Positions 3,360-12,397 of a stretch of 32,000 nt of DNA are shown here, in pieces. Origin of the DNA: Vibrio vulnificus CMCP6 (GTDB taxonomy: Bacteria > Pseudomonadota > Gammaproteobacteria > Enterobacterales > Vibrionaceae). The translations under genes and the position numbers were made by a program. Location of the stretch: assembly GCF_000039765.1 (NCBI RefSeq), contig NC_004460.2, positions 1,680,001 through 1,712,000 on the forward strand, in the 5' to 3' direction. How positions within the stretch are numbered: the first letter of the stretch is position 1; the number at the start of each line of letters is the position of its first letter. Below the pieces are notes generated by a model. The model worked only from the letters and a program-made list of their open reading frames with translations. It searched no databases and was not told the origin of the DNA.

Positions 3360-4943
3360 TTACTCTTCAATACAAACTTGGTTACGGCCGTTGGCCTTGG
3401 CGCGATACAACGCTTTGTCGGCGCGATAGAAGGTGCGCTGGGTATTTTCGCCGTCACGATGCATGGTAATGCCAATCGACACCGTTAGGCCGCGCTCACC
3501 AAGAATTTCTCGCCAACCAAACTGGAAAATACGTTCACGATAGTTTTCGGCATGAAGCTCTGCTTTCGCCAAATCAGTATTTTCAAGAATGACCAGAAAT
3601 TCCTCTCCACCAAAGCGCACGCAAGAAGCGCCACGAAAGCGGAAATACGCCGCCAACTCCGATGACACATTGACAATCGCTTTGTCGCCCACCAAATGGC
3701 TAAGCTCATCGTTGATCGATTTAAAGTGGTCGATGTCAATCACCATCAAGGCAAATGTAGTGTCGTGCAACAACAGATCCTTCAGTTTGACATCCAACCA
3801 ACGACGGTTATGCAAGGCAGTAAGAGGATCGGTGAAAACGTCTTGTTGTAGTTGAGCAACGGTGTTCTTGTGTTGCTGAGTGGTCTCTTTGAGCTCTTTG
3901 TTTTCGATTTCAGAGAGGATTAATTTCAACTGTAATTCAAAACGAGAGATACGGCGTAATTGAGCTGCCCCCAACTCACTGATGGGAATATGTTTCATCA
4001 GATCGCTTTCGATACGGAAGCCTTTTTTCTCAAAGACTAACGCCTCTTTGAATAGTCCTTGAGCGGCAAGAACTTCGCTCATTGCCTGATAAAACTGTTT
4101 GGCAATGATAGGGGATGCTTTCATCTCGATGTTTTTGGATGAACTGGTGAGCAGCAGATTCGCCAACTCTTTTTTGCCAATAGCACAAAGCGAGTAGGTC
4201 ATCTCAATGCGGTTCATGACCGATAACCAAGTGGAGTTCAAGTTGCCTGAAATGTACTGCACTTTGGAAAGCGATAGTAGGGCCGACACGTAATCTTTCT
4301 CAAGACGATGGATTTTTGCTTGATAGAGAAGAATTTGCCCAGAAAGAATTTTGTCACTGACGAGGATACTCAGTTCTTCACACTCTTTGAGTAGATCCTT
4401 CGCTGCACTAATACGACCAAGGTTGATGTAACAAGCGAGCATGTAGAGCTTGTAACGCAGGCGTAATGAGCGGCTACTGATGGCGTGATCGATACCATCG
4501 ATTTTTTGGTAATAGCGCAGCGCGCGTTGATGATCGCCATACGCGTCGCACAAGTTACCCATCCCCAAGACTGAGGTCACATACTCATCAAGAAAGCCGT
4601 GTTCGACGGCAATGTTTGATGCCCCAACGTATTCATTGAGCGCACTGGCGTAATCCCCAATGTCGACCAATCGCTCGCTGAGATTGGCTTTGACCGTCAA
4701 AATGTCTTCCGCATTTTCCGGTAGAGTGAGCAGCGACAAGGCTTCTTTCAATTCATCAATACTGAGCTGTACTTGTTTCAACTTGAAACGATATTCTGCA
4801 CTGATGATGTAGCAGTGGGCTTTTTCAGTATTGGTCGAGGCGACGTGTTGCCTCACGTGGTTCCATAAGATGATCGCTTCTTCACCAGACACAGAGGTTG
4901 GATCAAAACCGGCATCAGTTACTTTACTCAGCAGCTTTTCCAT
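3360..4943 (-). CDS. Diguanylate cyclase with an N-terminal TPR-like helical-repeat domain, a coiled coil and a GGDEF domain
   Basis: 527 aa. The C-terminus reads DPLTALHNRRW ... VIDIDHFKSINDELSHLVGD ... RFGGEEFLVIL ... SIGI ... YRADKALYRAKANGRNQV, an intact GGEEF active site. No RxxD I-site lies 5 residues upstream (RFRGASCVRFGGEEF). The ATG at 4943 lies inside the 3' end of the upstream gene. Confidence 0.9.
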   Translation of the reverse strand: MEKLLSKVTDAGFDPTSVSGEEAIILWNHVRQHVASTNTEKAHCYIISAEYRFKLKQVQLSIDELKEALSLLTLPENAEDILTVKANLSERLVDIGDYASALNEYVGASNIAVEHGFLDEYVTSVLGMGNLCDAYGDHQRALRYYQKIDGIDHAISSRSLRLRYKLYMLACYINLGRISAAKDLLKECEELSILVSDKILSGQILLYQAKIHRLEKDYVSALLSLSKVQYISGNLNSTWLSVMNRIEMTYSLCAIGKKELANLLLTSSSKNIEMKASPIIAKQFYQAMSEVLAAQGLFKEALVFEKKGFRIESDLMKHIPISELGAAQLRRISRFELQLKLILSEIENKELKETTQQHKNTVAQLQQDVFTDPLTALHNRRWLDVKLKDLLLHDTTFALMVIDIDHFKSINDELSHLVGDKAIVNVSSELAAYFRFRGASCVRFGGEEFLVILENTDLAKAELHAENYRERIFQFGWREILGERGLTVSIGITMHRDGENTQRTFYRADKALYRAKANGRNQVCIEE

Positions 4944-6423
4944 GTTTTTTCTTTCCCTTGGTCTTGGTTCTGTGTGAATCCTCTAATTGTTCCAGTGTGA
5001 ATGGGAAGGTGAGGATATCTTGCAAAGAGAGTTGAGGTAGCGGGCCGTTCAGCCCTCGGCGCTGCCACGGGTAGATCGAAATCATGGTGGAGACGACATG
5101 AAAAAGGGCGTCTGCAGGTTCGTCTTTTTCACTGATTAACATGGCTACGCGATCGCTGCTCAAGCGAGAGATGAGATCTTTTGGTGTCGACAAGCTATGC
5201 GCTAACTCGGTACACACTTCCAGATACGCAGGATCAGCATGTTGGATCATGATGATGGAATGGTTGGCCTGCTTGAGTTCGGTTTTAAATAAGACCAGTT
5301 GTTCCCACCAATAGGTTTCAGACACCACATTCGAAAACTGACGCTCTGGATCGTATTCGTGCTGGGCTCGAATGCGGTTAATGAGTTTGCGTGCTCGCTG
5401 TTCAAGTTGACGTTTGGAGCTACGTGCTTTGTCCAGACTAACGCGGCTAGTTTGCTCTCGCAGCATTTGCAGCGAGTAGTGGCGATACTTGCGAAAGGCT
5501 TGATAAGCCACCTCAAAGTTGCCTTGCTCTTCCGCCACTTTAGATTGCTGGAAACAAATTTGGCTTAACAGCTCACCATTATCAAATTGCAACGCAGAGA
5601 TTTCAGCTTGATCGAGTAAGACCGAAGCATTAAGGGTATTTTTCCGTAGCAGCTCTAAACGCGCGCGGCTGATAAATGAATGGGCTTTCATCCACGTGAG
5701 GTTGTGCTCAACCGCAAGATCATGTGCTTTTTTGGTTGCCTCGTCGGCGGCATCCAAACGCTCCAAACCTAGTAAGGCTAGACCGCGAAAATCCCAGATT
5801 TCCGCTTGCCATGTGTTGTCGGGGTAGTCTTTGAGTACTTCGCTAGCCCCATCCAAGATGGTCAGCATTTCCACGTAGTTATTGAGCAGGTAGTAATCCC
5901 AAGCTAACAAAATACGCGCTTTGCCTTCCGCCCAGTTGATACGTGCATTGTTTGCAACTTTAACTGCGAGTTCGTGCGTCGACGCAGCCAGTTTGTAATC
6001 GTTGGTGATGCGCCAAACGTTGCCCAAGCCAATTAACGCTTCAATTTGTATCTCGGTTTCATCAATTAACGCAGATTGTTCCAGCGCGTTAATCCAGTAT
6101 TGCTGAGCAGAATAATATTTGGCTTGACCCCAGTATTGTAGGGCATGCAAGTGGAGAATTTGTGGTAGTCGATCGTCGTTGTCGAGGCGGTTTTGTTTGC
6201 TGTGGGCTTCTTTGATGAGTTTTAAGCCACGGCGGTAATCCATCAAACACCAACAGCAGTGGGACTGGATTAAAAGGGCTTCAATTTCCGCTTCTGGGTA
6301 GACAATTTGCTCGGCGCGGATGTAGCACTGCTCGGCAACTTTCAGTACCTCCGCAGGCTCACTATTTACGCGAGCTTTGATTTGTCTGAGTTCAGCGTCT
6401 AACTGAAGTTGGCTTTTATCCAA
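4924..6423 (-). CDS. TPR-like helical-repeat protein with a coiled coil and a degenerate, truncated GGDEF-like C-terminus
   Basis: 499 aa with the same architecture as the downstream cyclase. Where the partner has RFGGEEFLVIL this protein has RLSSDRVAMLI, and DIDHF is replaced by QHADPA (alignment by eye). The track start is a TTG at 6423 with a weak GGAT upstream. The next in-frame Met is residue 61, so the start is uncertain. It overlaps the next gene by 20 nt. Confidence 0.7.
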   Translation of the reverse strand: MDKSQLQLDAELRQIKARVNSEPAEVLKVAEQCYIRAEQIVYPEAEIEALLIQSHCCWCLMDYRRGLKLIKEAHSKQNRLDNDDRLPQILHLHALQYWGQAKYYSAQQYWINALEQSALIDETEIQIEALIGLGNVWRITNDYKLAASTHELAVKVANNARINWAEGKARILLAWDYYLLNNYVEMLTILDGASEVLKDYPDNTWQAEIWDFRGLALLGLERLDAADEATKKAHDLAVEHNLTWMKAHSFISRARLELLRKNTLNASVLLDQAEISALQFDNGELLSQICFQQSKVAEEQGNFEVAYQAFRKYRHYSLQMLREQTSRVSLDKARSSKRQLEQRARKLINRIRAQHEYDPERQFSNVVSETYWWEQLVLFKTELKQANHSIIMIQHADPAYLEVCTELAHSLSTPKDLISRLSSDRVAMLISEKDEPADALFHVVSTMISIYPWQRRGLNGPLPQLSLQDILTFPFTLEQLEDSHRTKTKGKKKHGKAAE

Positions 6424-6583: not shown

Positions 6584-8107
6584 CTAGGACAGAAGCTGTT
6601 TAATGGTCAATGGGCTATCTGTAACACCTAGTCGTTGGGCTGGCGTTTGTCCATGTTTATCTTGATAGCACAAATTATGCCAAGCTCTGAAAATGTCGAG
6701 TAATGGTAAGACGCCACCCGGTCTAAGTTTTCGTCTTGGTTCGTTGACAAACCCTTCAAACAATAACTGAAAACGTGACTGATAGAACGAGATATTTCGC
6801 GTGGTTGCTTTGTTAAACCATTGTTCTGGCTGATTTTTGTTACCTGCAAGATAACAAATACCTTTGAGTTTGCTGCCTTGGTTGGCAATCGCCCAGCGAT
6901 CTCGCCACCAACTCATGTAGACAATGTCAAACTTTTCAAATGATTGGGTTAAATCCCAACTAGGATCTTCGTCGACATACAGTAGGTCAACATTTTGACT
7001 TTGAATTCGAGGGAGGCAAACACTCAGTGCCGCAGAGCGTAATAGCGGATCTTGTGGCATGTAAAGTGAGACGCGTCCAGCTTCGTTGCACATATCCAGC
7101 ACATGCAAATAATGCGCATAAGAGGTGTAAGGCGGACGAACTACGGCTCCTTTGGTCGGGTAGTTGAAGGTCGCCATATTTCCCATAGGATCTTCAACGT
7201 TGCCGCGGGCCAAAATGGTTTGGTATTTCTGGTCAATACGTTCACGCAGATAATCAGACGGTGTGTTTTCTGGCTCTTTTGCCTCTGCAGTGTACTGCGG
7301 AGAAACGAAGCGTGAAACCGCTTCATAGGGGTTGTGATCAACCGTACCTAATGGCTCTTCTTTGGCAGAGTAATTCACATGTTGGCAAAGAATATAGCCA
7401 GAATGCGCGTCACCTGTGGCCATCCAATACACACCATTGTCGCTATTGGGTTGCAAGCGTTGGTAATGAGAAGCGAGTTCGTAATTGAGCGCATGATTGA
7501 CCCATCGCGCATCAATCGTTGCCAATTTACGGCGGCAACGGCTGGCAATGTGTTCAACATGGTCATAAAACGTTTTTGGGTTGATGGCCAGTTTACGGCA
7601 AATCTCGCGCACCGAGTAACCGGTGAACAACAAACCCATCAAGTTTTCTTGAAACTGAAGCTTCTTGTTGGCGCCAGACCACTTATCGACAAACGTGGAT
7701 TGACAGGATTTGCAGCGATAGCGTTGGCGATCACCACTGTAGCCAAAGGCATGGTAGAGATGTTTGTGGGTGTGAACAGAAAGACCAAAATTTGCGCAGT
7801 CGTCGTTGCGACACGCTGGCAAACCATCACTGTGAAGTTGACGTAAGCGATGCAGCTCATTCAACACTTCACGGTTGTTAAGTAAGGGGGGGAAAGCTCC
7901 ACATTCACGACAGACCATCGCTGGACGCTTAGGGTTCGCATGTTGCAAAACGTATCGTTTTGCATCGCTCAGACCAAAGTTGTCACACGCCAATGTTTTA
8001 CAAAAGTTGAGTTGTAACCCATCTGCGTCTTTTGGCAGTTCGCCGTTAGACACGATCGCCCCCTCGGGATTATTCGGATGGCTGGGCGAACCCAGCCAAT
8101 TAAACAT
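6584..8107 (-). CDS. IS1-like single-ORF protein (two zinc ribbons, InsA-like HTH, InsB-like RNase-H-fold region); possible domesticated transposase
   Basis: 507 aa. QRYRCKSCQSTF and GYSVREICRKLAINPKTFYDHV resemble IS1 InsA (QRYLCSHCRKTW; HTH) from memory. VYWMATGDAHSGYILCQHV resembles the InsB WLFYAYDSLRKTVVAHV strand pair. The C-terminal TPAQRLGVTDSPLTIKQLLS tail is typical of IS1/IS1595-type transposases. ATG 8107-8105 overlaps the deoD stop. Confidence 0.65.
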   Translation of the reverse strand: MFNWLGSPSHPNNPEGAIVSNGELPKDADGLQLNFCKTLACDNFGLSDAKRYVLQHANPKRPAMVCRECGAFPPLLNNREVLNELHRLRQLHSDGLPACRNDDCANFGLSVHTHKHLYHAFGYSGDRQRYRCKSCQSTFVDKWSGANKKLQFQENLMGLLFTGYSVREICRKLAINPKTFYDHVEHIASRCRRKLATIDARWVNHALNYELASHYQRLQPNSDNGVYWMATGDAHSGYILCQHVNYSAKEEPLGTVDHNPYEAVSRFVSPQYTAEAKEPENTPSDYLRERIDQKYQTILARGNVEDPMGNMATFNYPTKGAVVRPPYTSYAHYLHVLDMCNEAGRVSLYMPQDPLLRSAALSVCLPRIQSQNVDLLYVDEDPSWDLTQSFEKFDIVYMSWWRDRWAIANQGSKLKGICYLAGNKNQPEQWFNKATTRNISFYQSRFQLLFEGFVNEPRRKLRPGGVLPLLDIFRAWHNLCYQDKHGQTPAQRLGVTDSPLTIKQLLS

Positions 8108-8817
8108 TAAAGATTGATGGCGGTTTCTAGAGCCACTTTCATCATGTCGTTGAACGACTTCTGACGATCTTCAGAGCTTAGTTTCTCGCCACGGATGATG
8201 TGGTCAGAAACAGTCAGAATAGTCAGTGCTTTTGCTTTTAGATCCGCAGCCACACCGTAGATGCCTGCTGCTTCCATATCCACACCTAGGATGCCTAGTT
8301 TTTCCATCTTCTCGAAGATGTCTGCTTCTGGTGTGTAGAAAAGATCCGCAGAGAATACGTTACCGACTTTTACTGGTACGTTTTGCGCACGTGCTTGTTT
8401 CACCGCTTCTTCCAACAGACCGTAATCCGCCAGTGCAGCGAAATCGTGATCGTTAAAGCGGATACGGTTTACTTTAGAATCCGTCGAAGCACCCATGCCA
8501 ATCACAACGTCCATCAGGTTAACGTCGTCGCGCACCGCACCACAGCTACCAACGCGGATAACATTTTTCACGCCGTATTCAGCGATCAGCTCGTGAACAT
8601 AGATACATGCAGATGGGATACCCATACCGTGGCCCATAACAGACACTTTTTTACCTTTGTAAGTGCCAGTGAAGCCGAACATGTTACGAACGTCACAAAC
8701 TTGTTTTACATCTTCCAAGAAGGTTTCTGCGATGTACTTAGCGCGTAGCGGATCGCCTGGCATCAGTACGGTTTCTGCGAAATCACCTGGTTGTGCGTTG
8801 ATGTGTGGGGTTGCCAT
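8107..8817 (-). CDS. deoD: Purine nucleoside phosphorylase DeoD-type (second, stand-alone copy)
   Basis: From the ATG at 8817 (GGAG 8 nt upstream): [36 protein letters not shown] ... GHGMGIPS ... RVGSCGA ... [12 protein letters not shown] ... TVSDH. This is nearly colinear with E. coli DeoD. The track start at 8931 adds 38 non-homologous residues and is rejected. Confidence 0.95.
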
Positions 8818-8935
8818 AGTATTCTCCAATATTTCTATTGAGGTAATTGTCATCAAAAACAGAGTCAAATTACCAATTCTGTTGAAACTGTTTTCGTTCG
8901 TTGAGGCAATACTAGCTAGATAATTCGCCATTCCA

Positions 8936-8951
8936 TGAGAGGTGTCTCACA
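8936..8951. promoter_or_regulatory. CRP-like site upstream of deoD
   Basis: TGAGAggtgtcTCACA matches TGTGA-N6-TCACA at 9 of 10 positions. A TAGTAT -10-like hexamer on the minus strand (8914-8909) lies about 32 bp from the site centre, which fits class II spacing. This is a single-site match only. Confidence 0.3.
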
Positions 8952-9150
8952 AAAGCTCCTGATTATACATTTATAATCCCAATTGATAACTAAAAATGTT
9001 GAAACTTAAAGGGCAATCGATTTGCCATGGTTGAAGCGCGTCACGGGGGCGCTGGGAGGGGATGGGAGCGTCGCAATTTATGGGGTAATTGTTACATGTT
9101 AATAACCTATGACATGGTTTAGTAACGTTAATTGTGGATTTTTTCTTTAT

Positions 9151-9221
9151 GTGTACAAAAAAAATATTTGTACAACTCAAGTTTGCTTGCTATAAATTGT
9201 ACAAGTAATTTTTTTGTACAA
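9151..9221 (+). promoter_or_regulatory. Promoter plus operator: four (T)TGTACA(A) palindromes in two N11-spaced pairs overlapping the -35, -10 and predicted start site
   Basis: TGTACA occurs at 9152-9157, 9169-9174, 9198-9203 and 9215-9220. Three of the four are full TTGTACAA octamers. Each pair has an 11-nt A/T spacer. The -35-like TTGTAC (9168-9173), a 17-nt spacer and TATAAA (9191-9196) sit between and within the pairs. Confidence 0.6.
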
Positions 9222-9232
9222 GGGTGGCGAGC

Positions 9233-10186
9233 ATGAATTCTTCTAAATTAAAGATCGGTATCAGTGCATGCGTGTTGGGCGATCAAGTCCGTTTTGATGG
9301 GGGACACAAACAGAGTCGTTTTGTGGTTCAGGAGCTGATGCCACACTTCTCCTTTGTACCCGTTTGCCCTGAGGTGGGGATGGGAATGCCTGTACCACGC
9401 CCGACGATTCGTCTTATTTCGAATGAAGAACGAATCGCGATGGTGGAAACCAAGAATCCAGACAAAGATTACACTGAGCAGATGCTCTCTTACTCTGAGC
9501 AGCAAGTTGATCGATTAATGGCGCACTCTTTAAGTGGTTACATTGTCTGCGCAAAATCACCCACCTGTGGCATGGAGAAGGTCAAGGTCTACAAAACTCA
9601 TGGCGCGGAAAAAGAGGGCGTTGGTTTGTACACTCAAACGCTGATGCGCAAAATGCCTTGGTTACCGGTGGAAGAAGATGGTCGCCTGAATGATCCTGTG
9701 CTGCGTGAAAATTTCATCACTCGTGTTTATTGCCTGCATGATTTTAATACCAACGTGCTAAATCAGTTGTCGCGCAAAAGCATCGTCGAGTTCCACTCTC
9801 GCTACAAACTGACCTTGATGGCGCATCATCCCGCGTCGTACCGCTCGTTAGGGCGTATGGTGGCATCCATTGCGGAGTACGATTTGCAAGAGTTTGCCTA
9901 TCAGTATCGTGAAGGACTAATGAAAGCCTTAACCCATCGTGCGAGCCGCAAAAACAACACCAATGTGTTAATGCATCTGCAAGGTTATTTTAAGACGGCA
10001 CTGAACAAAGAGCAGAAAAGTGAATTGGCTCAAGTTATTCATGATTACCGAACAGGTTTATTGCCACTGTTGGCACCGTTGACTTTGATTCGCCACTACT
10101 TAAATACCCATCCTGATGGCTATTTAGAAAGCCAGAAATTCCTTAAACCTTATCCTCAGGAGTTGAAACTGCGTTATGGATTGTAA
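9233..10186 (+). CDS. Fused DUF523 (TudS-like thiouracil desulfidase family) and DUF1722 (YbgA-like) protein
   Basis: The ATG at 9233 is preferred, with AAGGGTGG 6 nt upstream. The track GTG at 9224 sits inside that SD. N-terminal half: KIGISACVLGDQVRFDGGHK ... FVPVCPEVGMGMP ... AKSPTCGM, three Cys as in the DUF523 Fe-S site. C-terminal half: FHSRYKLTLMAHHP ... LMHLQGYFK, which is DUF1722/YbgA-like. E. coli ybgA likewise precedes phr. Confidence 0.85.
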   Translation: MNSSKLKIGISACVLGDQVRFDGGHKQSRFVVQELMPHFSFVPVCPEVGMGMPVPRPTIRLISNEERIAMVETKNPDKDYTEQMLSYSEQQVDRLMAHSLSGYIVCAKSPTCGMEKVKVYKTHGAEKEGVGLYTQTLMRKMPWLPVEEDGRLNDPVLRENFITRVYCLHDFNTNVLNQLSRKSIVEFHSRYKLTLMAHHPASYRSLGRMVASIAEYDLQEFAYQYREGLMKALTHRASRKNNTNVLMHLQGYFKTALNKEQKSELAQVIHDYRTGLLPLLAPLTLIRHYLNTHPDGYLESQKFLKPYPQELKLRYGL

Positions 10187-10979
10187 ACAACCAATGGACA
10201 AAAAACTGTATGCCATTCGCGAAGTGTCAGAGTTAACAGGGGTAAAACCTGTGACGCTACGAGCCTGGCAAAGACGTTACAATTTGGTCCAGCCAGAGCG
10301 TACTGAGAAAGGGCATCGACTCTACAGCGAAGACAATATTGAGATGATTCGCGAGATTCAAGGTTGGCTCGCCAAAGGCATTGCCATCGGCAAGGTGAAA
10401 GATCTGCTGGCAAATCCCGACGCCGAAGGCGCGTTAGCGGTGGAGAGTCGTGAGTTAGATGAAGTTGAACGAATGTTGTCGGCTCTGTCTGTACTGAACG
10501 CAGGTAAGGCTGAGTCGGTGTTAAATACGGTGCTGAAAGAGTATCCATTTACGGTGGTTTGCGATCAGTTCTTATATCCGGTCATGACGGCATTGGAGCG
10601 GGTTAAAAGTACCACTCGTAGCCTACAAAAAGGCTTACTTCGCTCTATGCTGCATACTCGTCTCACCTTTATTGTCGAAGCGGAGCGGAAAGCGGCCACG
10701 AAAGGCAAGTGCCTACTGCTTTCCTATGAAGGCGGAGACTTTATTGCGGGATGGATGGAGGCGGTGACGTTAAGCGAGCAAGGTTGGTATGTCACTTTGA
10801 TTGATGGAGTGGAAGATCTCTCTGGGCTCGATTTTGCCGATGTCGCCGAACACTATCAGCGTGTGCATATTTTCTCGCATCGAGCGTTGCAAGAGAAGCA
10901 ACTCAACATGGTTAAGTCCATGCTCGATAACAACAAAGTTACGTTGAGCGATGTTTTGGCTCGACTCCAATTTGGGTAG
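10176..10979 (+). CDS. MerR-family transcriptional regulator, LitR/CarH-like architecture
   Basis: N-terminal HTH: YAIREVSELTGVKPVTLRAWQRRYNLVQPERTEKGHRLYSEDNIEMIREIQ. The C-terminal 120 aa or so look like a Rossmann-type B12-binding-like fold (KCLLLSYEGGDFIAGW) but lack the DxHxxG His, judged by eye. The start could be 10176 (overlapping the upstream gene by 11 nt) or 10194. Confidence 0.85.
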   Translation: MDCKQPMDKKLYAIREVSELTGVKPVTLRAWQRRYNLVQPERTEKGHRLYSEDNIEMIREIQGWLAKGIAIGKVKDLLANPDAEGALAVESRELDEVERMLSALSVLNAGKAESVLNTVLKEYPFTVVCDQFLYPVMTALERVKSTTRSLQKGLLRSMLHTRLTFIVEAERKAATKGKCLLLSYEGGDFIAGWMEAVTLSEQGWYVTLIDGVEDLSGLDFADVAEHYQRVHIFSHRALQEKQLNMVKSMLDNNKVTLSDVLARLQFG

Positions 10980-10981
10980 GG

Positions 10982-12397
10982 ATGGCAATGAAGCTGGTTT
11001 GGTTACGCAGAGACTTGCGCAGTGTGGACAACACTGCGCTCAATCATGCCATTGCGACCTCACAAGAGGTGGTTGCCTGTTTTGTGGCCACCCCTTTGCA
11101 ATGGCGTGATCATCATATGGCGCCTATGCAGGCCGATCTCATTGCACGACGTTTGGCGGTGTTGGCGGAAGAACTCAACGCGCTCAACATCCCACTGTTG
11201 TACGACGAAGTGGATGACTACGCTCAAAGCGCAACACGCGTTGCTAACTGGGCTGAACAATTGGCGGTTAGTGAAGTGGTGCTTAACCGCGAATATGAAG
11301 TCAATGAGCGTGTTCGTGACGAACAGCTGGTCAATCAGCTCGCATCATCAGAGATTGGTGTTCTAGATGTTGAAGATAAGTGTGTGCAGGCACCTGGCTG
11401 CGTGTTGAATAAACAGGGGGACTATTTCAAAGTCTTTACACCGTTTAAAAAAGCGTGGCTGAAATCGTTTGTTCCACCACAGATCATTAAAACCTCAGCG
11501 GCGCAGCCGGTTGTATTGCCTGAAGCGCTGCAATCATCACTTTGGCATGAGCAGGCGCCGTTTAGCTACCCACGACAAAGCAGCGAGGAATGGTCTGTTG
11601 ATTCTCAACAGATTCGTGAGACGTTAAGACACTTCTGTCATGAGGAAGTGGATCGCTATCATGAGCAGCGAGATTTCCCTGCCACGGCAGGCACCAGCGT
11701 GCTGTCTCCTTATTTGGCGATTGGCGCCATTTCGGTCAGGCAATGCATTGCACGACTGTATTGGCAGCAAAGTTATCTGTCGAACGGACGTGAAGTGTGG
11801 TTGAGCGAGCTTATTTGGCGTGAGTTCTATCATCACCTGATTCATTTTGAACCCAAGTTGGTCAAAGGGCAGGGTTTTGTCGAGTGGGAAAAACATCTGT
11901 TGTGGCCTGCAAAACCGGACTGGTTTGATCGTTGGTGTCGAGGGGAAACGGGCTATCCCATTGTGGATGCCGCGATGCGGCAACTCAACCAAACGGGATG
12001 GATGCATAATCGCTTGCGTATGATCGTGGCCAGTTTTCTCACCAAAGATTTGCACGTCAACTGGCGGTTGGGAGAGCAATACTTTATGCAAAAACTGGTG
12101 GACGGTGACTTTGCGGCCAACAATGGTGGCTGGCAATGGTGTGCCTCGACAGGGTGTGACGGTCAACCTTATTTTCGGATCTTCAATCCAATTACGCAGG
12201 GAGAGAAGTTTGACCCGAATGGCGAATTTGTGAAGCACTGGCTACCAGAACTAGTAGAGGTGCCGAGTAAGTTCGTTCACCAGCCGTGGAATTGGCCAGG
12301 TCACATGCAGTTAGATTACCCAGCGCCAATGGTTGATCACAAACAGGAAAGAGAGATAACCTTGTCTTTGTATACCCAAGCCAAGGATTGTCTCTGA
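10982..12397 (+). CDS. phr: Deoxyribodipyrimidine photolyase (class I CPD photolyase)
   Basis: LVWLRRDLRSVDNTAL at the N-terminus. The FAD region TGYPIVDAAMRQLNQTGWMHNRLRMIVASFLTKDL ... DGDFAANNGGWQW ... PYFRIFNPITQGEKFDP is near-identical to E. coli Phr motifs. The second ATG at 10988 has better SD spacing (TAGGGA) than 10982. Confidence 0.95.
   Translation: MAMKLVWLRRDLRSVDNTALNHAIATSQEVVACFVATPLQWRDHHMAPMQADLIARRLAVLAEELNALNIPLLYDEVDDYAQSATRVANWAEQLAVSEVVLNREYEVNERVRDEQLVNQLASSEIGVLDVEDKCVQAPGCVLNKQGDYFKVFTPFKKAWLKSFVPPQIIKTSAAQPVVLPEALQSSLWHEQAPFSYPRQSSEEWSVDSQQIRETLRHFCHEEVDRYHEQRDFPATAGTSVLSPYLAIGAISVRQCIARLYWQQSYLSNGREVWLSELIWREFYHHLIHFEPKLVKGQGFVEWEKHLLWPAKPDWFDRWCRGETGYPIVDAAMRQLNQTGWMHNRLRMIVASFLTKDLHVNWRLGEQYFMQKLVDGDFAANNGGWQWCASTGCDGQPYFRIFNPITQGEKFDPNGEFVKHWLPELVEVPSKFVHQPWNWPGHMQLDYPAPMVDHKQEREITLSLYTQAKDCL

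Follow-up and report, generated by a model that had tools for sequence, protein, structure and literature searches.

The domestication of transposases into transcription factors is a major theme of eukaryotic biology. FHY3/FAR1, CENP-B, ZBED and PGBD-type proteins illustrate it, and bacteria offer TldR, a nuclease-dead TnpB: all these are transposon proteins that kept their DNA targeting, lost catalysis and became single-copy host regulators. The domestication of DDE enzymes into transcription factors is, to our knowledge, almost undocumented in bacteria. Two other systems are pertinent here. The insertion sequence IS1, which makes 9-bp target duplications, encodes InsA, a repressor that binds the IS1 ends, and the repressor DeoR, which controls deo genes, loops between its operators. 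The locus that we consider lies in a stretch of 32,000 nucleotides of Vibrio vulnificus CMCP6 (assembly GCF_000039765.1, contig NC_004460.2, positions 1,680,001 to 1,712,000 of the forward strand), henceforth the window, numbered from its first letter. On the minus strand of the window deoD2, a gene for a purine nucleoside phosphorylase, is followed by a long gene that we name X (Table 1), for which we propose an activity akin to that of InsA. X is very probably the domesticated, or exapted, descendant of a transposase: it is a single-copy syntenic gene, kept under purifying selection, that has lost both the ends of the element and the catalytic triad. That X would also regulate nucleoside genes, by means of short sequence boxes placed around their promoters, is a proposal towards which sequence comparison tilts us, if only slightly.

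To place X in its genomic setting, 80 Vibrio loci were kept out of 279 relatives found by genome scan; they come from 80 different contigs, one per genome. X occupies one locus in each of these genomes, and is present as one copy in the window. Directly 5' of it stands deoD (80/80 Vibrio loci), and 3' of it, at 78 of the 80, a gene coding for a TPR protein. The close homologues number 157 and are 49-82% identical; all of them belong to the Vibrionaceae (Vibrio, Photobacterium, Salinivibrio, Grimontia, Enterovibrio), and the deoD–X order is retained in Salinivibrio and Photobacterium. Between ten species pairs the ratio of nonsynonymous to synonymous divergence (dN/dS) of X is 0.003-0.064, a mark of strong purifying selection. 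Synonymous divergence in identical species pairs is 3-30x lower in deoD than in X, a contrast that would fit strong expression of an enzyme gene and weak expression of a regulator gene behind it. The low value of deoD suggests that its codon usage is strongly constrained, or possibly that the other deoD copy has converted it.

The parentage of X comes from a profile search of 1.8 billion representatives (hmmsearch), which retrieved 677 related clusters, most of them 550-720 amino acids (aa) long and with C-terminal two thirds that no Pfam or NCBIfam model describes. Compared with a family of 570-650-aa transposases, the Vibrionaceae profile of X gave an hhalign probability of 100% (E 7e-74, 489 columns, 26% identity). 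One of these transposases, P0295 (603 aa), is found as an identical protein on 15 contigs with different flanks. At ten loci of its element the differing flanks start exactly outside CAAGCCGGTACACAAAGGTGTTG, on the left, and outside its inverted copy, on the right. The terminal inverted repeats of the element are 23 bp long, and its insertion duplicated 9 bp of target, GTAAGAAGC in one case and GCATCGATG across two assemblies of one site in another. A metagenome scan provided 80 further loci, 40 of which have paired ends of the P0295-type design, and many family members are carried by contigs of 1.9-2.0 kb, which is the size of the element; on the L081 contig there are no paired ends, the left one alone being recognisable. 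From inside to tip the ends read (T)CAACAC-N5-6-(GTAAA/GTGAA/TGTAC)-CGGCTWG, AACAC being present in 78/78 distinct ends and CAACAC in 65/78. The P0130/P0295-type elements are a genuine and abundant insertion-sequence family, which we could not place in a described one.

Some features of this family deserve mention in their own right. Its elements, about 1.9-2.0 kb long, carry one 570-650-aa transposase with an IS1-type zinc-binding and helix-turn-helix (HTH) N-terminus, between 23-25-bp repeats of the form CWAGCCG...GTGTTG, and make 9-bp duplications. More than 1300 protein clusters belong to it, from metagenomes and plasmids (for example Pseudomonas aeruginosa CP136985.1; our loci L093-L102, L103-L182 and L081). 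A few of its transposases, P0160 and P0178 among them, end in an exonuclease domain of the DEDD type (RNase T / DnaQ-like), a fusion that is unusual in transposases. Compared with IS1 InsAB', for which the query was an approximate sequence, the family gave an hhalign probability of 83% (E 1e-5), the zinc ribbon and HTH alone being aligned. As to X, ends of the CWAGCCG-N-GTGTTG type are absent from the 32-kb window and no transposon-type inverted repeats flank the gene, in agreement with the first-pass annotation, a reading by eye that had found no convincing ones beside it. An 18-nt inverted repeat around the long reading frame (I2, 6599-6616 / 8094-8111) was discarded as a chance match: made of the window-specific TAATG region and of coding sequence, it is not conserved.

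What remains recognisable of the ancestor in general databases is its N-terminus. Pfam and NCBIfam matches in X are limited to aa 121-192, where a zinc ribbon of IS1/IS1595 type and an HTH are recognised. The NCBIfam model transpos_IS1 matches aa 123-192 with E 3e-8 (model positions 14-84 of 199; 33.8 bits vs a cut-off of 100) and IS1_IS1595_Zn matches with E 6e-5, while neither Pfam DDE_Tnp_IS1 nor IS1595 is found at E <= 1. The kinship with IS1/IS1595 transposases proposed at first reading is right for the zinc ribbon and HTH and fails for the catalytic part, the hhalign comparison also being confined to the N-terminus. All eight cysteines of the two ribbons are invariant in the Vibrionaceae alignment and in the related insertion-sequence family. 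Beyond the HTH, the AlphaFold (AF2) model of X (pLDDT 82.5, pTM 0.83) has a core of b1-b2-b3-helix-b4-helix-b5 topology with insertions. Its best Foldseek matches in the PDB are piggyBac, Tn5, the PIWI domain of Argonaute and endonuclease V, all RNase H-like but all weak (E >= 0.02, TM ~0.3); the topology, together with the position of the conserved Asp, is suggestive of an RNase H-like core in X. Searching PDB sequences yielded just marginal matches to the NarL HTH, the PHROGs phage library matched the N-terminal transposase module only, and the PADLOC defence library had no match for X.

Many NCBI and UniRef records name X 'lactate dehydrogenase', which would make of it a metabolic enzyme co-expressed with deoD. 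We give next to no credence to this view: no dehydrogenase or other enzyme family matched X in Pfam, NCBIfam or PDB sequences, and the protein consists wholly of zinc ribbon, HTH and transposase core. Pfam and NCBIfam also detect in X no HTH of the DeoR or LacI type and no sugar-binding effector domain.

Three Asp, numbered D236, D393 and D521 after P0130, show little or no variation among the active transposases. In the model of one such protein the first sits in the middle of b1, the second closes b4 and the third opens the helix that follows b5, which is where a DDE/DDD triad canonically has its residues. The hhalign counterparts of these residues in the window protein are H214, P351 and S440, respectively. 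At none of these positions do 26 Vibrionaceae sequences show a conserved acid: the first is variable (H, N, S, T, R or V; a few sequences from Photobacterium have D), the second is an invariant proline and the third is again variable. Judged from these alignments X should be catalytically dead, all three acidic positions having been lost. A dead triad had been suspected from the outset, and this conclusion holds; the assignment then made of the second Asp (DIVYMSWWRDRW) differs from the profile alignment to active relatives. It is the N-terminal DNA-binding region that is best conserved between X and the active transposases. The internal insertions of X exist in active transposases too and are ancestral; the one of about 150 aa, first taken as a feature of domestication, is not such a feature.

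Several records call X 'IS1 family transposase' or 'transposase', and partial matches to IS1 models, as well as full-length homology to a real transposase, would be expected of a protein that is still active, or conditionally active, as transposase or recombinase of an IS1-like element. The data already contradict this view. A lone copy, found at the same place in the genomes of 80 species and without terminal repeats; three catalytic positions all replaced, one of them by an invariant proline; purifying selection over family-level divergence, with a dN/dS of about 0.02-0.06; an IS1 score so far under its cut-off: all this leaves it only the slimmest chance. The first-pass annotation had seen in X a dead, domesticated transposase, DNA-binding and linked to a nucleoside phosphorylase. 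Single-copy synteny (one per genome, 80/80), dN/dS, full-length homology to the transposase of a mobile element and the replacement of all three catalytic Asp bear out this proposal, its regulatory side being a putative one.

What, then, might a dead transposase do next to deoD2? Alignment of the region upstream of deoD in 20 Vibrio species reveals five conserved blocks. One of them has the form TGTGA-N6-TCTCA, which we take, from the consensus, to be a CRP site. Boxes 1 and 2, on either side of the predicted start, share the asymmetric motif TCAACA-N6-GTWAT. This motif has two matches in the 32-kb window (the two boxes) vs 0.06 expected, and in 752 kb of Vibrio loci 148/152 strict matches coincide with the two box positions; with a relaxed pattern both boxes are recovered in 81/81 loci. 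The spacing is equally constrained: box 1 is exactly 51 nt 5' of the CRP site in 81/81 loci, and the boxes, in direct orientation, are 115-117 nt apart in 80/81. Two other identities for box 1, a further CRP site and a DeoR palindrome, were rejected, the box being asymmetric and having no TGTGA/TCACA halves. Compared with the element ends described above, the box reads as the inner, protein-binding part of an end without its tip. The gene vca0053 is reported to be under transcriptional control, with CRP-linked regulation, and the assignment of the CRP site is consistent with this (PMC8672173).

The same motif is found in the intergenic DNA that adjoins distant relatives of X, with 19 relaxed matches vs about 2 expected for a uniform base composition. 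It occurs twice between nupC and the gene of an Agarivorans relative and once each in a deoB and a 5'-nucleotidase locus, and it precedes xapX-deoD or xapX-X units in Photobacterium, Salinivibrio and Enterovibrio. The XapX-like gene of these units codes for a conserved XapX/DUF1427-like membrane protein of 56 aa; it lies 5' of deoD or X in Enterovibrio, Photobacterium and Salinivibrio and is also found at a paralogue locus of V. brasiliensis (L090 4745-4915, L092 3667-3837, L091 4080-4229, L086 5758-5937). All 80 Vibrio loci, and the window, are devoid of it.

A domesticated X need not be the reader of these boxes. A regulator of the CytR, DeoR or LacI type might bind them, leaving X to bind other DNA or RNA, or to partner the phosphorylase or the TPR protein. 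Other regulators clearly act at the deoD2 promoter, where a LacI-type operator-like palindrome and the CRP site are conserved; a common but unrelated regulator would also explain why the box recurs in nucleoside loci, and the constancy of the TPR gene 3' of X in Vibrio (78/80) would suit a partnership. We nevertheless consider this alternative unlikely, if deserving of attention. Within the terminal repeats of the active relatives of X, it is the core of the box that is best conserved, and the DNA-binding N-terminus is what X has best in common with them. The boxes are asymmetric, a trait typical of transposase end sites but untypical of the operators of dimeric LacI or DeoR proteins. They are present even where nucleoside metabolism is represented near the X relative only by a divergent 5'-nucleotidase gene, and in Photobacterium and Salinivibrio no TPR gene stands beside X.

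The regulatory reading of X gains breadth from its triad-less relatives. The first Asp is missing in about 25 clusters of 440-500 aa, which a midpoint-rooted neighbour-joining tree places on one side along with X. The Agarivorans relative is divergent from nupC-deoC-deoA-deoB-deoD and adjoins a Bmp/ABC nucleoside transporter; a metagenomic relative is divergent from deoB-deoD and a gene for a nucleoside:H+ symporter (nupG-like); another relative is divergent from the 5'-nucleotidase gene; and the V. brasiliensis paralogue lies 3' of nupC, add and a XapX-like gene, and adjoins genes for a purine nucleoside phosphorylase, mtnA and mtnB. A further relative, a 414-aa 'cytoplasmic protein', exists in Escherichia coli (CP099174.1, L183 3989-5233, between mokC and nhaA). 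It is related to the transposase family over its full length and triad-less (hhalign probability 98%), and may result from an independent or a related domestication. One might generalise further, to a clade of DDE-transposase-derived transcription factors that would control nucleoside uptake and catabolism in Vibrionaceae, Agarivorans and other marine Gammaproteobacteria, with at least three subfamilies and possibly an E. coli branch, with operators descended from the ends of the parent insertion sequence, and with repression by a synapsis-like loop. On this generalisation we find the balance to be even.

The junction of deoD and X, at first sight remarkably tight, requires a different reading. 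The deoD stop (TAA 8109-8107) overlaps an ATG (8107-8105) by one base, and from that ATG an uninterrupted frame of 507 codons runs to 6584. The deoD paralogue, the long reading frame behind it on the minus strand and the TAATG overlap had all been reported properly in the first-pass annotation, which saw in the latter a translational coupling that left no room for an inverted repeat. Nearly all X homologues, however, are 489 aa long, not 507. In 80/80 Vibrio loci the frame opens at a GTG that corresponds to window 8053-8051 and follows the invariant block CCCGAGGGGGnGAT; the stretch between the deoD stop and this block differs in length and frame from species to species. V. floridensis, a sister species with an X that is 98% identical, has no ATG, GTG or TTG 5' of the conserved GTG, and residues 1-19 of the 507-aa version are unstructured in the AF2 model (pLDDT <50). 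Because the GTG is conserved with CCCGAGGGGGnGAT, because the V. floridensis spacer has no start and because residues 1-19 lack structure, we set the start of X at GTG 8053. Comparison of the loci makes 8053-6584 the real gene X, as far as we can judge, and the TAATG overlap an accident of the V. vulnificus genome; the 18-codon extension is probably an untranslated spacer. The open frame of 507 codons is real, but it is the 489-aa start that is conserved, and the coupling goes with the longer version.

There is, in fact, room between the two genes. The true spacer of 53 nt contains a GC-rich stem-loop, which is an RNA hairpin and not a transposon end. It is found in ~74/80 loci, with -14 to -22 kcal/mol (RNAfold), 11-13 nt 5' of the ribosome site, and all 9 of its pairs show compensatory double changes (RNAalifold); the five or six species in which it is missing have spacers of ~20 nt. 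A role as terminator was ruled out (the U-tract is absent and the terminator scan silent), as was a role as DNA operator, the structure being kept but not the sequence. We infer that it is probably an intercistronic RNA element within one transcript, stabilising the deoD part or limiting read-through. A sequence scan of the spacer predicted no promoter-like site or terminator between deoD and X, and this, with the ~20-nt spacers of some species, makes co-transcription of the two genes likely in Vibrio. The operon link proposed earlier is acceptable to this extent; a deoD–X gap of 400 nt in Photobacterium and the absence of deoD in Enterovibrio mean that the linkage is not universal. A separate observation concerns the 20 nt at the start of X (window 8051-8070, CCCGAGGGGGCGATCGTG), conserved far beyond the needs of a ribosome site. 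Its CCC and a GGG in the Shine-Dalgarno sequence might form three base pairs, invariant and without covariation, a hint at translational control.

Table 1. Features of the deoD2–X locus; positions are those of the window, residues follow the 507-aa numbering
Feature	Position	Strand	Basis and remarks
RNase H-like core with insertions, aa 206-507; catalytic positions H214, P351, S440	6587..7492	(-)	AF2 topology, hhalign, MAFFT
Helix-turn-helix region, aa 150-205	7493..7660	(-)	Pfam HTH aa 157-193; AF2 helices 150-205; aligned to IS1 InsA HTH
Two four-Cys zinc ribbons, C36/C41/C66/C69 and C99/C104/C132/C135	7703..8002	(-)	Second of IS1/IS1595 type
Gene X, conserved GTG start 8053-8051, 489 aa, stop 6586-6584	6584..8053	(-)	Homologue length, conserved GTG, dN/dS, hhalign
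18-codon 5' extension of X, ATG 8107-8105	8054..8107	(-)	Frame and start unconserved; pLDDT <50
Shine-Dalgarno sequence of X, GAGGGGG within block CCCGAGGGGGnGAT	8059..8065	(-)	79/80 Vibrio loci and window, 5-6 nt 5' of GTG
Intercistronic RNA hairpin UGGCUGGG-UUCG-CCCAGCCA, no U-tract	8079..8098	(-)	RNAfold, RNAalifold
deoD2, DeoD-type purine nucleoside phosphorylase, 236 aa	8107..8817	(-)	NCBIfam NF009914 E 9e-133; Pfam PNP_UDP_1
Box 2, TTCAACAGAATTGGTAAT, candidate X operator, centre ~+25	8869..8886	(-)	Conserved block; 81/81 loci
-10 hexamer TAGTAT	8909..8914	(-)	Conserved block; predicted start near 8902
CRP-like site TGTGAGACACCTCTCA, TGTGA-N6-TCTCA, ~-41.5	8936..8951	(-)	20-species block; TGTGA-N6-TCnCr in 81/81 loci
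Box 1, TTCAACATTTTTAGTTAT / TTTCAACAnnTTTnGTTATCAA, candidate X operator, centre ~-92	8986..9003	(-)	Conserved block; window match; 81/81 loci
Near-palindrome GGCAAATCGATTGCC, LacI-family (CytR/PurR-like) operator-like	9012..9026	(-)	Belongs to the deoD2 control region, not to X

Taken together, and with measured confidence, the explanation that we prefer is that of an exapted DDE-type transposase repressing deoD2 through end-like boxes. The ancestor would have been the transposase of ~2-kb insertion sequences, with an IS1-like double zinc ribbon, an HTH and an RNase H-like D-D-D core. In the ancestor of a clade of marine Gammaproteobacteria the element ends and the three catalytic Asp would have been lost, and the DNA-binding N-terminus and the folded core kept. 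X would bind asymmetric TCAACA-N6-GTWAT sites, descended from, or mimicking, the inner transposase-binding part of the terminal repeats. A pair of such boxes, 117 bp apart, brackets the CRP-dependent promoter of deoD2 in Vibrio; bound at both and bridged by its dead core, much as a transposase brings two ends into synapsis, X would loop the DNA and repress. Being read from the deoD transcript, it would regulate itself, while the hairpin would probably set a high deoD to low X expression ratio. A nucleoside-related ligand may relieve repression, and the distant relatives would repress other nucleoside genes. Binding to the boxes, repression, looping, control by a ligand and co-transcription are all steps that we infer from sequence comparison.

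A number of observations weigh against this scenario. As regards the triad, the first Asp falls on L207 by MAFFT and on H214 by hhalign; neither is a conserved acid, and the L207 position is variable too. The third catalytic residue is D in only 74/88 active-family sequences and N in 11, which makes its role less certain. The fold searches gave no significant match (best E 0.02, TM ~0.3). The neighbour-joining tree of the triad-less proteins carries no support values. Some loci depart from the nucleoside theme: the relative P0125 adjoins ybgA-phr and no deoD, the X locus of Enterovibrio has no deoD, and the E. coli relative adjoins a sulfatase-like gene. The 3' half of the box resembles the element ends only loosely, and the expectation calculated for the relaxed motif presumed a uniform base composition; the boxes, as said, could belong to another nucleoside regulator common to these bacteria. 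Finally, the literature searched, which covered VCA0052, VCA0053, deoD2, ISMhu11 and bacterial transposase-derived factors, contains nothing on the X protein. VCA0052 of V. cholerae, probably the orthologue of X to judge from gene order, is listed as hypothetical (PMC13376802).

The neighbourhood has a few more features of interest. In the near-palindrome of the deoD2 control region AATCGATTGC is nearly invariant in the 20 Vibrio species; the site, often preceded by CAAACGTTT, looks terminator-like in a simple scan, yet it is conserved in sequence. Farther 5', at 9145-9220 of the window, repeated TGTACA / TTGTACAA inverted repeats lie 5' of divergent genes for ybgA (DUF523/DUF1722), a MerR-family regulator and a photolyase (9224-12397). 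Conserved in other Vibrio, they are probably the operator of a MerR-type regulator of the light response. On the other side of X, the TPR-repeat protein of Vibrio, 499 aa long and with a C-terminal half that matches no assigned domain, is encoded at 4924-6423 (-) of the window; Photobacterium and Salinivibrio do not have it there.

If the clade-wide generalisation is true, it would represent the first described case in bacteria of a protein-guided DDE-type transposase exapted as a metabolic regulator, with a parent insertion-sequence family that is still active and unclassified; the literature searched holds no described bacterial example of protein-guided DDE-type exaptation. The domesticated protein, its mobile relatives, their ends and the candidate operators are all at hand, which makes the path from end to operator, and from synaptic complex to loop, amenable to test. 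The second (vca0053-type) purine nucleoside phosphorylase of Vibrio pathogens would gain a named regulator, and the widespread misannotations of X as 'lactate dehydrogenase' or 'IS1 family transposase' would be corrected. An insertion-sequence family of more than 1300 protein clusters, which current Pfam and NCBIfam models do not describe, is exposed at the same time.

Set beside known systems, X is closest to the P0130/P0295 transposases, with which it has in common zinc ribbons, HTH, RNase H-like core, internal insertions and a C-terminal helix, the box motif of the X loci being the inner part of their terminal repeats. It differs from them in having neither the three catalytic Asp nor terminal repeats, target duplications or extra copies. 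It is ~100 aa shorter, with a reduced helical insertion after b5, and, unlike them, it is vertically inherited at a fixed locus. With InsA/InsAB' of IS1, X shares an N-terminal Cys4 zinc ribbon followed by an HTH. It is, however, twice as long, has an extra N-terminal zinc ribbon, requires no frameshift and shows no detectable likeness to the catalytic domain of InsB; target duplications of 9 bp are common to IS1 and the parent elements, but the ends of the two differ in sequence. The proposed repression by X of nucleoside catabolic genes, at a CRP-dependent promoter with two separated operators, recalls the control of deo genes by DeoR and CytR, the more so as genes of X relatives adjoin or diverge from deo and nup genes. 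This likeness would be functional only: X is unrelated, in sequence and in domains, to the DeoR and LacI families, and its boxes are asymmetric and in direct orientation, not palindromes. Of the domesticated proteins evoked at the beginning, TldR is RNA-guided and the others are eukaryotic. X would be, in bacteria, a protein-guided case of the DDE type, tied to a metabolic pathway.

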